This document shows positions 159 to 9,031 of a stretch of 22,980 bases of DNA, piece by piece. Location: IMG/VR virus record IMGVR_UViG_2547132417_000017; one strand, given 5' to 3'. The first letter of the stretch is position 1. Each line of letters opens with the position of its first letter. The notes beneath the pieces were generated by a model. That model saw only the letters and a list, made by a program, of their open reading frames with translations, was not told the origin of the DNA and made no database searches. Made by a program: the position numbers and the translations under genes. This DNA is from a virus. Its lineage: Duplodnaviria > Heunggongvirae > Uroviricota > Caudoviricetes.

Positions 159-477
159 TAAGAATTCCCTCTCATGTAAAAAGAGACACCATAAAGGTAC
201 TGTGTGGTGTTTGAAAATCACTCAATTATGTACCACCCACCACAACAGGGGAAGACCCATAAATATACAGTAACCCTATGGGAGGGATTTCATGGTTGGC
301 GAACATTTCAGCCGAACGCAGCAAAAGTGGGCTTGTGTGCAATTTATTGCCGAGGTATCTCTGATTGCAAACTGCAAGCCATCAGACTTAAAGCTCGCGC
401 TCACTCTCATTGCAGACCTAGCAAACAGCGAAAATAACGAAACCGAAGATGATAATTTTTATAAGGCTGATTAGATT

Positions 478-713: not shown

Positions 714-787
714 AACGCCGTCGGTGCTGAATCTTGCTTTCAGTGCTGGCGGGGTTGAAACTGGCTCCGAGAGGTGTTAGTTCTACC
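714..787 (+). repeat. Copy 1 of a ~75-nt conserved element starting 3 nt after the dinI-like stop codon; contains a 14-bp hairpin at 718-752
   Basis: AACGCCGTCGGTGCTGAATCTTGCTTTCAGTGCTGGCGGGGTTGAA...GGTGTTAGTTCTACC aligns by eye with 1117-1192 at roughly 75-80% identity. Arms 718-731 and 739-752 pair with four G-U wobbles, so the structure is only possible in the plus-strand transcript. Confidence 0.6.
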
Positions 788-904
788 TTTCAAACTTTCT
801 CGATGTTTTATTGGTTACACACCGGTGATTAATGGGACGTTACCTTAGAGGATTTTATAGTGGCGCTTTGACAGCACTGAATAAAATTCATTGAGGGCGA
901 TAAT

Positions 905-1114
905 ATGCATCGACTACCGGGCGAAATTCCGCAGCACAAAACTAAAAGCATAAAACTGATGGCTATCGTTCATCGCTTGCAGACGATAATGGTCAATGAG
1001 AACCTGACGCCAGCGGAATTGGTCGGGTGTGCAGAAATAGTCAGGGATAACTACGATAAGCTGAACGATATCAGCAGGCCGACACAATATGCGCCACCAC
1101 CATGTCGAAGATAG
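905..1114 (+). CDS. Hypothetical small protein (69 aa), no recognisable family
   Basis: ORF with GAGGG about 8 nt upstream of the ATG. Sits between the two copies of the repeat and is co-directional with the dinI-like and HNH genes. Confidence 0.45.
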   Translation: MHRLPGEIPQHKTKSIKLMAIVHRLQTIMVNENLTPAELVGCAEIVRDNYDKLNDISRPTQYAPPPCRR

Positions 1115-1116
1115 CG

Positions 1117-1192
1117 AACGCCGTCGGCGCTGAAACTTGCTTTCGGTACTGGAGGGTTGAACAACGAGTCCCTCTAGGGGTTAGTCTGTTCC
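1117..1192 (+). repeat. Copy 2 of the ~75-nt conserved element, starting 3 nt after the stop of the 69-aa ORF
   Basis: AACGCCGTCGGCGCTGAAACTTGCTTTCGGTACTGGAGGGTTGAA...GGGGTTAGTCTGTTCC. Same position relative to a stop codon as copy 1; the hairpin is retained with two mismatches. Confidence 0.6.
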
Positions 1193-1207
1193 GTAGAGAT
1201 TGGCCCA

Positions 1208-1232
1208 AACCGGCACTATTAAAGCCGGTTTT
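1208..1232 (+). terminator. Putative intrinsic terminator after the 69-aa ORF and repeat copy 2
   Basis: AACCGGC (1208-1214) pairs with GCCGGTT (1224-1230) around a 9-nt loop, followed by T residues. Confidence 0.35.
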
Positions 1233-1326
1233 CGTATGTCCAATCTAAAGAATGGGGGCTGACATCCCATCATCAGATTTGTGTTATTTTAGTGCTACTC
1301 ATTCGTCATTAGACATTGTAAGGGCA

Positions 1327-2043
1327 ATGTATATGAAACCAAGCACACACTGCGTTTATTGCGGTGTTCTCATGAATAAGGTTGAAAATCCCCCCCACTG
1401 CCGCTCAGTTGAACACATGATTCCGCAAGTTTCAGTCTCCATTCATAGAACCAACGGCGAAGGTGATTTCTATGTATGCAAAAAGTGCAATGGCGATAAA
1501 AGCCGAATTGACGAGGTGTTAGGTGTCATTTGCCGCATGGTAGGAGAGCACTCAACAGGCAGCTTTGATGCTGTTAATAAATTCCATAATGCGCTTAAAA
1601 GAAAAGACTCGAAATTTCGTGAAGCATTCCAGAGTGTTAGGCATACAAAAAAAGGTGCGCAGATAACATTACCCCTAAATGGTAGGGAGATTTACCAATA
1701 CGGCACCTGGTTAGCCAAGGGAGTATTTTTCTTAGAGTATGGGCAATTGTTGACTGTAGATAAATTAATTTGGATTAATATCGTTCGCCACGATGAAGTA
1801 ATGGCTATTAAAGAAATGTATAGAAATGAACGTGGCTCTGAGGCATTTGATGATTTATCGAAGAATAGCAACATTCCAAATATTAATGGCGAGTCGTTTC
1901 TGATTGTTGGCCAGGATGCCCGAGAAATGTTTATTTGCTTCAATAGAGTAATGATGTTTCATATAAAGATACTGGATAGAACGTTTATTAATCAAAAAAA
2001 ATGCAAAAAAGCCCTACTCAATCTGGAAAAAAGGGTTCGATAA
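1327..2043 (+). CDS. HNH endonuclease-domain protein with an uncharacterised ~170-aa C-terminal domain; AT-rich cargo gene
   Basis: HNH signature in the translation: CVYCG ... VEHMIPQ ... RTNGEGDFYVCKKCNGDKS. Start is ambiguous: the ORF opens at 1252 with no SD, while ATGs at 1327 and 1333 follow AAGGG. The gene is markedly more AT-rich by eye than the flanking structural genes and sits on the far side of cos. Confidence 0.6.
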   Translation: MYMKPSTHCVYCGVLMNKVENPPHCRSVEHMIPQVSVSIHRTNGEGDFYVCKKCNGDKSRIDEVLGVICRMVGEHSTGSFDAVNKFHNALKRKDSKFREAFQSVRHTKKGAQITLPLNGREIYQYGTWLAKGVFFLEYGQLLTVDKLIWINIVRHDEVMAIKEMYRNERGSEAFDDLSKNSNIPNINGESFLIVGQDAREMFICFNRVMMFHIKILDRTFINQKKCKKALLNLEKRVR

Positions 2044-2188: not shown

Positions 2189-2207
2189 GGCGTGGCGGGG
2201 AAAGCAT
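2189..2207. other. Putative cos cohesive-end sequence of a P2/186-family phage
   Basis: GGCGTGGCGGGGAAAGCAT is present at 2189-2207. From memory the P2 19-nt cohesive end is GGCGAGGCGGGGAAAGCAC and the 186 one is GGCGTGGCGGGGAAAGCAT. The location, about 490 bp beyond the 3' end of portal gene Q, fits P2 genome organisation. Confidence 0.5.
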
Positions 2208-2433
2208 TGCGCGCCAGCGGTGGTGCGTATTATTAAAAAATACCGTCTGAGTGCGTTGTGGTGGAGCTAACGAGAGCGTTGCTAGATCGTGGGAGTTCTG
2301 ATGCGAACGTGGGGCTATGTTTTGTCTGTGGAGCGATGAGAGAGGGTGAGATCAGTCGCACAATTCTACGGCTGTGCTTCCGTTAATATCTTCATCGGTA
2401 TGTCATGTTCCCTACCAACAGCTGGAGGCTTTA

Positions 2434-2695: not shown

Positions 2696-3742
2696 TTATT
2701 CCGGGTTGTCGAGGGTGTACTCTTTGAACCTGATGACCTCTATACCGAGCCAGTCGTTTACCTCCCTGAACCTGTCCTGCAGCGGCGACAGCTCGTTACG
2801 CACAAATACCTTTGCCACCTTCTCAACGTCACCGAGTGAGCCGATATTCTCGGGCTTGCCACCCATTAGCTGGAACGGCACGCGGTGCGCATCCATCAGG
2901 TCGGCGGCACTGGCTTTCTTGATATTGAAAAAGTCATCCTTTGTGGCGACCTCGCTCAGTGGCACGATTTTGATGCCGTCCGGTTTTCCGCCGGGGGCGT
3001 AGAAAAACAGGTTCTTAAAGTTGCCGAGCCCTTTCGAGTTACGCATCGCCTCGCGTAGTGATTCGACGTCGGTCGCGCTCTGCGCCGGGTCGGTCACATA
3101 CATGATGTAGCCCGCGTGCGCGCCGTTCTGGTAATACTTGCGACGGAACAGCGTCGCGGATTCATTCAGCCAGGCAGAATTAAGCGCGCTGAGATATTCC
3201 GGCAGGCCGTAAATCTCCTGATTAATATCAGGCTCCAGCAGGTGAAACACGGTGTCAGGCGCGAACTCATGCGGCTGAGTGAAGTTTTCCACAAACCAGA
3301 AAATTGAATCATCAACCCCACGGCGGGTGTATTTTGCTGGTGATGCCAGCAACTTGATTAACTGGCCGGTGACGCTGTGGCGCTGCTCAAGAAAAGCGTT
3401 GCCGAAGACCAGATAGTCGAGAGCAAAACGGCTGAAATCCTGACGGGACAGCAGCGGGTGCGGAATGTAGGTGCTCGCGAGTACGTTGCGTTTAACGTAA
3501 ATCGGTGAGCTGTGATGTACGGCAGAGCGCAGGCTCTTTGCCAGCCCGGAAAAGCTGACCGGCGGCTCGTACCATTTGCCGTTACTGATGCACTCGACAT
3601 AATCCAGAATGTCGCGCTTATCGAGCACCGGAACTGGCTCACCGAAGGTGAACGCTTCCATTTTTTGCGGTGCGCTGGCTTTCAGTTGCTGTGGTGCGCG
3701 TGTTTTCTGCGCGGCGGCTTTGCGGGATTTTTGCTTACCCAT
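2696..3742 (-). CDS. Q: Portal protein (P2 gpQ-like)
   Basis: 348-aa translation has the size and sequence character of P2-family portal proteins and sits immediately downstream of the terminase gene on the same strand. Confidence 0.92.
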   Translation of the reverse strand: MGKQKSRKAAAQKTRAPQQLKASAPQKMEAFTFGEPVPVLDKRDILDYVECISNGKWYEPPVSFSGLAKSLRSAVHHSSPIYVKRNVLASTYIPHPLLSRQDFSRFALDYLVFGNAFLEQRHSVTGQLIKLLASPAKYTRRGVDDSIFWFVENFTQPHEFAPDTVFHLLEPDINQEIYGLPEYLSALNSAWLNESATLFRRKYYQNGAHAGYIMYVTDPAQSATDVESLREAMRNSKGLGNFKNLFFYAPGGKPDGIKIVPLSEVATKDDFFNIKKASAADLMDAHRVPFQLMGGKPENIGSLGDVEKVAKVFVRNELSPLQDRFREVNDWLGIEVIRFKEYTLDNPE

Positions 3743-8521: not shown

Positions 8522-9031
8522 ATGACGACAGTAATACTGAATCAGCCCGACGAACCGCAGGACGTACCGGGCGTGGTGATTCCCGCACCGGAGACGGGCG
8601 ACGCAGTGATTAAAAACACGTTCTTTTTCCCTGATGTGGATCCGAAGCGGGTGCGCGAACTGATGCGCCTTGAGCAGACGGTTTCCGATGCGCGCCTGCG
8701 CAACGCCATCAAGACCGGCATGGCGGAAACCAATGCGGAGCTTTACGACTACCGGCTGCGCCAGATTGCCGCAGGGTTTAAGACACTGGCCGACGTGCCT
8801 GACGCCGAGGAAATCGACGGCGAGAATGTGCGCGTTTTCCACTACCTCAGCGCCGTGACGGCGATGGCGACCGCCACCCTGTATGAGCGTTATCGCGGGG
8901 TTGAGGCCACGGGCAAGGGTGACAAAAAAGCCGACAGCGTCGAAACCACCATTGATGACCTGTGGCGGGATATGCGCTGGTCGGTCTCGCGTCTGCAGGA
9001 CAAGCCGCGCTGCATCGTGGGTCAGCTCTGA
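8522..9031 (+). CDS. L: Head completion/stabilisation protein (P2 gpL-like)
   Basis: 169 aa. Its TGA stop overlaps the ATG of X at 9029-9033. Confidence 0.88.
   Translation: MTTVILNQPDEPQDVPGVVIPAPETGDAVIKNTFFFPDVDPKRVRELMRLEQTVSDARLRNAIKTGMAETNAELYDYRLRQIAAGFKTLADVPDAEEIDGENVRVFHYLSAVTAMATATLYERYRGVEATGKGDKKADSVETTIDDLWRDMRWSVSRLQDKPRCIVGQL

Follow-up and report, generated by a model that had tools for sequence, protein, structure and literature searches.

Why should two unrelated small phage genes each be followed, almost directly behind the stop codon, by the same short sequence? The question is posed by positions 714 to 1,192 of a 22,980-nucleotide (nt) stretch of DNA from a tailed virus (Caudoviricetes; IMG/VR record IMGVR_UViG_2547132417_000017), the whole of which we call the window. 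An earlier, sequence-only reading had pointed to homologous repeats at 714-787 and 1117-1192, behind a dinI-like gene and an open reading frame (ORF) of 69 amino acids. Comparison with other genomes identifies both repeats as copies of a roughly 67-nt element of enterobacterial P2/186-like phages, a hairpin followed by a near-invariant tail, which stands after the last gene before a variable cargo region. Our preferred reading, to which we give about even odds, is that the element would be a cis-acting structured RNA module of enterobacterial P2-family phages, transcribed as the 3′ untranslated region (UTR) or intercistronic spacer that closes a conserved rightward operon.

The two copies, both on the plus strand, share an ungapped direct repeat (D5) of 45 nt at 84% identity, which pairwise alignment lengthens to about 67 nt at the cost of one small gap, and they are the window's only long local direct repeat of this kind. 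The homology first reported is real, but its ends overshoot by 7-8 nt: similarity stops at TTAG (780 and 1184), placing copy 1 at 714-780 and copy 2 at 1117-1184. As had been claimed, the copies begin right after stop codons, at the third base behind TAA (709-711) of the dinI/tumB-like gene, 2 nt 5′ of copy 1, and behind TAG (1112-1114) of the gp37/gp92-like gene for the 69-amino-acid protein, which thus has an element copy on either side. The two upstream proteins are indeed dissimilar, with no BLASTP alignment at E ≤ 100. A profile built from other phages matches the window only at these two places (nhmmer E = 2e-16 for copy 1 and 1e-13 for copy 2), and a covariance model scores the copies at 81 bits and 68 bits, respectively.

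Neither gene duplication, which the sequence-only reading had already discounted, nor a local accident explains the repeat, given that the element recurs in hundreds of related phages and prophages. BLAST located it in 53 phage records, including 186, PSP3, SEN1, Wphi, P2-like isolates and Yersinia, Klebsiella and Erwinia phages, and it is also found in many Salmonella P2-like phages. In E. coli, 374 of 5426 complete genomes carry it, in one or two places each and almost never annotated, and pattern scans of IMG/VR yielded hundreds of further copies. The genuine matches in one-genome-per-species data all belong to Enterobacterales (Citrobacter, Kluyvera, Trabulsiella, Enterobacter, Scandinavium, Erwinia, Symbiopectobacterium and Escherichia spp.). 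Among loci sampled by the replication endonuclease gene gpA, 66 of the 74 Klebsiella-type loci with enough sequence have one copy, at a fixed place after tumA-dinI; the element is present in 50 of 79 186-type loci, and in 16 of these 50 gp37 stands between two copies at a spacing of about 405 nt.

The borders of the element are sharp. Homology between copies runs from AAC to GTTAG, with 98 of 113 parsed copies terminating in GCGTTAG, and all genuine copies share the orientation of gpA and of the upstream gene. An ORF of at least 45 codons ends no more than 27 nt from the element in 123 of 128 copies, and in 77 of these 128 the stop codon lies exactly 2 nt before it. The upstream flanks comprise 16 types, in essence the last stretches of a small set of genes (dinI/tumB, gp37/gp92-like, orf97-like and a few more); the downstream flanks comprise 35 unrelated types, all abutting GTTAG exactly, and one cargo flank was found behind 7-8 tail variants and several upstream genes. 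The expectation that the element would recur after other cargo genes was therefore borne out in part: it recurs widely, but follows a short list of genes, and the variable cargo lies downstream instead. A decayed form was also seen, at 677-731 of locus L053 and 8522-8576 of locus L233, in which a remnant upstream of a full copy retains the tail while the hairpin has collapsed to AAACGCCG-C-CGGTGTT, indicating that copies can decay through deletion between the hairpin arms.

What is conserved in the first part of the element is a structure. Folding reproduced the 14-base-pair (bp) hairpin with four G-U pairs originally drawn for copy 1 and extended it by a closing AAC/GUU beyond the 14 contiguous pairs, such that this hairpin (HP1, 714-756) reads AAC, one mismatch, the 14 bp, a 7-nt loop and GTT, an arrangement matched by covariation in its relatives. 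The predicted RNA fold of copy 1 has an energy of -36 kcal/mol and a z-score of -5.9, with 0 of 200 shuffles as good, and the minus strand (z = +0.6) folds no better than shuffles; plus-strand folds gave z of -5.9 and -4.1, and the minus strand about 0. Across the family the hairpin has 17-19 bp and a span of 42-45 nt, framed by an invariant AAC...GTT. A scan with the tail as its only anchor yielded 27 families of hairpin sequence, separated by at least 20%, and when family representatives were folded independently nearly all formed 17-19 bp spanning exactly AAC...GTT.

Compensatory change, which the sequence-only reading had proposed as a check, proved abundant in the hairpin. In alignments fitted to the structure model, a procedure that favors structure although independent folds of single representatives agree with it, positions were paired in 93.4% of cases versus 79.5% after shuffling (A5, 87 distinct sequences from the tail-anchored scan; both-side changes at 15 of 18 pairs, 266 cells), 93.9% versus 83.2% (A6, 47 distinct sequences obtained through the Klebsiella-type gpA gene only; 12 of 18 pairs) and 96.3% versus 92.5% (A4, 104 distinct sequences of an E. 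coli-type set combining an HP1-pattern scan with 186-type gpA loci; 10 of 18 pairs). None of 500 shuffles of A5 reached the observed values, slid controls paired at no more than 46%, and RNAalifold independently found the same helix in the A5 set. G·U cells outnumber A·C cells by 152 to 27 in the 27 families and by 243 to 19 in the E. coli-type set, an excess showing that the plus strand is where the fold is selected. We conclude from these comparisons that the hairpin is maintained by selection.

The second part of the element behaves in the opposite manner, as its sequence rather than its pairing is kept. This tail of 24-30 nt, the most conserved part of the element and absent from the earlier account, reads GAACAACGAG(C)-nnn-GCGAGGCGTTAG and is at least 90% conserved per column in an unbiased set, whatever follows it, with the exception of a hypervariable patch of 3-5 nt. 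It is constant across phages of Escherichia, Klebsiella, Salmonella, Yersinia and Erwinia with stems more than 20% apart. In alignments A2, A4 and A5 the tail of copy 1 (GAAACTGGCTCCGAGAGGTGTTAG, 757-780) lacks 2 nt and departs from GAACAACGAGC-nnn-GCGAGGCGTTAG, the consensus of the family; copy 2 divides into a hairpin at 1117-1158 and a tail at 1159-1184. A GAGG in the tail lies at Shine-Dalgarno distance from gene X (85 amino acids), whose start is 3 nt behind GTTAG in Escherichia phage Cartapus and in many phages of the Klebsiella type, and likewise from a UmuD-like gene that starts 2 nt after GTTAG in two loci. In "empty" phages of the Klebsiella type, the motif TGCATG... of the cos flank begins 8 nt after GTTAG.

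Two further observations concern the tail. It alternates between CGAGC and CTCGC (for example, in loci L037, L088 and L086 versus L001), a four-base reverse-complement swap that perfects a palindrome with the downstream GCGAG and looks like a quasi-palindrome template-switch mutation rather than stepwise substitution. Moreover, GCGAGGCG (GGCGAGGCG in some copies; 768-775 in the window) is identical to the opening 8-9 nt of GGCGAGGCGGGGAAAGCAC, the cohesive end of P2, with the hypervariable patch directly 5′ of GCGAGGCG. The window's own cos reads GGCGTGGCG, and the match does not track the cos variant; it is probably due to chance (roughly 0.5%).

The position of the element in phage 186 gives it a place in a transcript. 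There it occupies 30341-30412, between the orf97 stop (30335) and t95b (30436-30463), which the 186 record annotates as the terminator of the LexA-controlled p95 SOS transcript; the element is thus inside the p95 transcript as annotated in that record. The suggestion of a functional 3′-UTR module consequently holds for 186, where the element is in the 3′ UTR of an annotated SOS-operon transcript, and elsewhere becomes an intercistronic spacer. The operon that it ends is the LexA-controlled tumA-dinI/tum operon in phages of the 186, PSP3 and Klebsiella types and the early operon in those of the Wphi type. A cis-acting RNA module accords with a helix of constant two-turn length that tolerates G·U pairs, with the location of the element at stop codons and with the transcript annotated in 186, although RNA as the active form, and the barrier, processing and ribosome-binding roles set out below, are what we infer from comparison. 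Directly after the stop codon, the hairpin would form right behind the terminating ribosome, where it could act as a barrier to 3′-to-5′ exonucleases, as a processing site for a double-strand-specific enzyme of the RNase III type, or as both. It would thereby fix and stabilize the 3′ end of the upstream message and uncouple that message from the cargo that follows. The tail would be a sequence-specific site, its GAGG serving as a ribosome-binding site for a first cargo cistron whose start is 2-3 nt behind GTTAG. As background, a study of the Salmonella P2-like prophage BTP5 reported no prophage transcript more abundant than that of tum, and its authors suspected post-transcriptional control (PMC7067206).

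Several points weigh against this reading. The element is missing from P2, P4 and phiCTX, from 8 of the 74 Klebsiella-type loci with enough sequence and from 29 of the 79 186-type loci (a few of them too short downstream of gpA to tell), where, for example, a full-length tum is followed by a t95a-type terminator and then by cargo; by this comparison the element is beneficial but dispensable. It has no U-tract and hence is no ordinary terminator. An exonuclease barrier alone leaves the invariance of the 24-30-nt tail unexplained, even in "empty" phages with no following gene, and a ribosome-binding site alone does not account for invariance of the whole tail. A second hairpin within the tail (CGAGC-loop-GCGAG or AAC...GTT) was rejected, its covariation being no better than that of controls. 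Copy 2 keeps the register of the hairpin with two mismatches, as the sequence-only reading had noted, but its minimum-energy fold is at shuffle level (z = -0.1) and the hairpin is weakened. The further claim that the fold exists only in RNA was correct as to the plus strand but overstated, since single-stranded DNA of that strand is also predicted to fold (z = -3.5 with DNA parameters); what the data establish is that the fold is strand-specific, and they do not single out RNA. The exactness of the GTTAG junction across 35 flank types exceeds what a purely RNA-level role predicts.

The junctions invite an explanation at the level of DNA exchange. Exchange clearly happens at the element, as a single cargo flank is combined with several upstream genes and with 7-8 tail variants. 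Comparison of the loci shows the element to be the last conserved sequence before the hypervariable cos-proximal hotspot and, by its position, a left homology anchor for cargo exchange. Of the recombination scar that had been proposed, then, the recombination junction stands, with 16 upstream and 35 downstream flank types shuffled, but the element is no scar, its hairpin structure and tail sequence being under selection. Rousset et al. (2022; PMC9122126) proposed that the hotspot is exchanged via the cos end and one homologous crossover. Homologous recombination within 67 nt, together with a second event at cos, would suffice for exchange at the element. A "gene + element" unit that recombined behind another element would leave two copies, and a gp37 + element unit placed behind a dinI + element unit explains the duplication in the window (dinI-element-gp37-element).

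A more specific proposal is that the element is a site for site-specific docking or exchange, recognized as DNA or as the plus-strand hairpin by a recombinase or nuclease, either in the manner of attC or through aberrant terminase cutting, with cargo joined exactly after GTTAG and "gene + element" units behaving as cassettes. We consider this unlikely, despite the 35 unrelated sequences that abut the same nucleotide, the sharing of one cargo flank among tail variants and upstream genes, and at least five unrelated genes with the element right after their stop codons, as in the array of the window. The attC R′ consensus is GTTRRRY, which the GTTGAAC at the right side of the hairpin fits, and the invariant AAC...GTT frame adds to the likeness. 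The left side fails: the sequence 5′ of AAC is purine-rich (ACAAAC, GCGAAC, AAGAAAC), does not conform to RYYYAAC and has no complementarity to the R′ side. AAC/GTT is the only pairing that the left side makes, and attC core pairing was accordingly rejected. Sites of the attC class act through the bottom strand, whereas the counts of G·T-type pairs given above favor the top, coding strand, on which grounds bottom-strand activity was likewise rejected. Homology also continues about 30 nt beyond the GTT of the hairpin, where the attC crossover would lie, and the right end of the cargo has no second element copy.

In its full form this proposal would make the element a platform that captures genes much as an integron does, though with no integron integrase, that supplies the P2 anti-phage defense hotspot and that is worked by a phage or host enzyme, with terminase one candidate on account of the cos match of GCGAGGCG; this version, too, strikes us as improbable. 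The hypervariable patch just 5′ of GCGAGGCG, a sequence identical to the start of the P2 cohesive end, speaks for it, but the 8-nt match is independent of cos type, and the likeness to the gpA origin (CGCCTCG) does not extend to 186-type origins and also turns up by chance. No integron-type integrase, attI or dedicated recombinase was seen in the locus parts examined, which for integrase and attI were the ORFs of the window's first 3 kb, of the Ecol_545 locus (about 7 kb) and of L321 6300-9500, and no systematic search was made; these phages carry only the usual P2-type integrase. Were such a site real, promoter-less genes would land under an SOS promoter and behind a ready-made ribosome-binding site.

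A trans-acting small RNA is doubtful to a similar degree. Where a t95b-type terminator follows, as in 186, behind window copy 2 and in the commonest downstream type, a 3′ UTR of roughly 120 nt would be released, and its conserved single-stranded tail would pair with host or phage messages. The layout of hairpin, tail and terminator in 186 and at window 1117-1233 agrees with this, as does the frequency of the terminator-type flank CCTGCCCC..., the largest downstream class (25 of 115 unique copies), and the tail is invariant while the stem drifts, as expected of a seed region. Most copies, however, have no terminator behind them and instead meet a gene start, the cos flank or cargo. The 186 genome contains no complementary target above chance, the best being 12 nt including 1-3 G·U pairs, host targets not having been searched, and Rfam, enterobacterial small-RNA families included, gave no match.

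It is very unlikely that the element is a single-stranded DNA signal of rolling-circle replication, for instance one at which, downstream of the gpA origin, synthesis is primed or a helicase loaded on the displaced strand. Its fold is strand-specific and is predicted with DNA parameters as well, it is found 0.6-2 kb downstream of the gene A origin and always faces the same way, and lagging-strand synthesis in P2 needs a dedicated protein, gpB, according to the annotation of the P2 record. Against this, P2 itself and many viable 186-type phages do without the element, some phages have it duplicated, and its tight placement at stop codons and supply of a ribosome-binding site point to the transcript. 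An essential role in replication or packaging was rejected, as absence from P2, P4, phiCTX and many 186-type phages argues against one, and so was a gpA pseudo-origin, the shared CGCCTCG being missing from 186-type origins and common by chance. Least credible of all is a leftover of local duplication or past recombination with no function of its own, still present because too young to have been lost: many phages can dispense with the element, window copy 2 is decaying and a hairpin-less remnant exists at L053 677-731, but 27 diverged stem families keep their pairing via double substitutions and the tail is invariant across phages of five genera despite stem differences above 20%, which together indicate purifying selection and not recent origin.

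The surroundings of the two copies are those of a known phage type. The window is a PSP3/186-like prophage of E. coli. Its first 2.7 kb show 92-96% identity to the right end of phages of the PSP3/186 type, which belong to the P2 family (Peduoviridae), and E. coli Ecol_545 carries a near-identical prophage. The 3′ end of gpA extends to about 178. On the plus strand follow a tumA-like small gene (292-474; phrog_1993, E = 1e-31; a match to PSP3 tumA), first of the tum/dinI operon, and the dinI/tumB-like gene (478-711; Pfam DinI PF06183, E = 7e-24; a homologue of PSP3 TumB). Copy 1 is succeeded by a 124-nt leader and the gp37/gp92-like gene (905-1114; phrog_11386, E = 2e-46; a homologue of PSP3 gp37). 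Behind copy 2, an intrinsic terminator on the plus strand (1209-1233; ACCGGC, 9 nt, GCCGGT, then TTTT) matches the annotated t95b, which in 186 follows the element at 25 nt, in sequence and is its equivalent; a simple terminator scan missed it because its loop exceeds 8 nt.

Next comes the cos-proximal hotspot for anti-phage systems, the stretch from gpA to the portal gene in P2-like phages (PMC9122126). In the window it holds a single cargo gene (1333-2043, plus strand; phrog_31193, E = 8e-171), whose position corresponds to that of the P2 hotspot in the same study. The encoded protein of 236 amino acids has a Cys/His-rich, HNH-like N-terminus and weak matches to Septu PtuB models (E about 1e-3), and the gene may be an uncharacterized defense or exclusion gene. 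The variable region's right border is a motif, TGCATGC...GCAT...TTGCATGCG, at 2066-2098, found by comparing the window, 186, PSP3 and L321; here, about 90 nt left of cos, homology to P2-like phages resumes, with megablast homology from about 2149. The 19-nt cohesive end GGCGTGGCGGGGAAAGCAT lies at 2189-2207 on the plus strand, window 2189-2264 aligning to bases 1-76, annotated as cos, of Erwinia phage EtG. A DUF2188 gene stands between the cos region and the portal gene, which is on the opposite strand (2696-3742).

Upstream of tumA-dinI, the LexA operator looks split or truncated in the window (198-272; TACTGT, 55 nt, ATAAATATACAGTA), and PSP3 keeps an intact LexA box, TACTGTATAAATATACAGTA, at the corresponding spot. 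No CTGT-N8-ACAG with at most one mismatch was found in the window's first 300 nt, and SOS control of this prophage's tumA-dinI operon may be altered. Gene X (MGSKDSNYQVVYR...GGWVLFQRPK...GGGFWLGKTYDG) was located at L321 7602-7859, L384 2501-2761 and L382 1501-1767 and also occurs in P22-like and SSU5-like phages; it has no Pfam or PADLOC match and, judged by its setting, is an SOS-controlled accessory gene. A tie between gene X and the element was rejected, as P22-like SE1 has X behind a perfect LexA box of its own and no element.

The element was also held against known classes and alternative structures. Rfam 15 gave no match at gathering scores for the whole window, nor up to E = 10 for 600-1300, and ARAGORN found no tRNA or tmRNA in the window. 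An intrinsic terminator was rejected, because the hairpin is followed by an invariant GAACAAC with no T's and the scan found none at either copy. Measured as an RNase III site, the helix of 17-19 bp, which is constant in span in 27 families and in 186 belongs to the annotated p95 transcript, falls a little below 20-22 bp. Chi was rejected: the octamer GCTGGTGG differs by one mismatch from the E. coli-type 3′ arm GCTGGCGG and is wholly missing in other hairpin families. So was a LexA operator, as the CTG-N11-CAG at the top of the hairpin is one base too long and not AT-rich, and neither element copy contains CTGT-N8-ACAG with at most one mismatch. A three-way junction, suggested by outer pairing of AACGCC with GGCGTT in the 186 minimum-energy fold, fell to A2 variants that break this pairing uncompensated, and a pseudoknot between the loop (CUNG) and the tail (CGAG), suggested by L042 only, is uncompensated in the CUGG-loop families of A5 and A6. 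A coding role was discarded as well; the copy 1 frame is open from the dinI stop to the terminal TAG, but indels of 1-2 nt break it in other copies.

The element is unmarked in the annotated records inspected (phage matches, 186 and E. coli genomes), and a full-text search with its sequence strings returned no paper, although coverage of the P2 literature was incomplete and an earlier description is possible. It presents itself as a candidate new RNA family, for which the comparative evidence is unusually clear, its structure kept through 27 sequence families beside an invariant tail, in model phages such as 186, PSP3 and Wphi. It marks the left border of an anti-phage defense hotspot to the nucleotide, and a covariance model would help to delimit cargo automatically in Enterobacterales genomes. 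Through its exact junctions, the exchange of hotspot cargo can be approached in a concrete, testable way. Since it closes the antirepressor operon (tum/dinI), which is under SOS control, the element may account for the post-transcriptional control suspected in prophage induction.

Among known systems, the 186 terminators resemble it in place. Copy 1 holds the position of t95a, after the antirepressor gene, and copy 2 lies 25 nt upstream of the t95b equivalent, but t95a and t95b are ordinary terminators with a GC stem and a U-tract, whereas the element has no U-tract and is unannotated in the 186 record. That record also lists tR1 (L276 24384-24412), far from the element, among several early-region terminators that are anti-terminated in early lytic development, no mechanism being named. 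Like mosaic-joint linkers and P2 hotspot borders, the element is a short conserved sequence at a sharp junction, here the left edge of the gpA-to-portal hotspot; compensatory evolution sets it apart from a passive linker, and the text of PMC9122126, as searched, does not mention a conserved hairpin or left-border element. With attC it shares a place after each unit's stop, structure kept over sequence, the AAC...GTT frame, strand specificity and a locus where promoter-less cargo is swapped, but it forms at most two units, differs in left core, strand and crossover position, and has no integron integrase in sight.

REP/BIME elements, too, stand directly after stop codons and are transcribed, and by analogy the element could block 3′ exonucleases and give differential expression within an operon. 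The element does not resemble the REP consensus. REP sequences have hundreds of copies per chromosome and a shared consensus, whereas the element occurs in one or two places in those E. coli genomes that have any, only in P2-like prophages and at one locus, for which reason REP/BIME or another chromosomal repeat family was rejected. Parallels are also offered by hairpins that RNase III processes, namely the R sites of the T7 early region and the lambda sib retroregulator, which are likewise long, imperfect, strand-specific hairpins between or after the cistrons of phage operons, with a helix of about two turns whose sequence is free and whose structure is kept, and which by analogy suggest an effect on the fate of the upstream message. 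The element differs from them in its near-continuous 17-19-bp stem without a T7-type internal loop and in its invariant single-stranded tail of 24-30 nt, and it shares no sequence similarity with them. In kind, the element resembles these known phage intercistronic hairpins.

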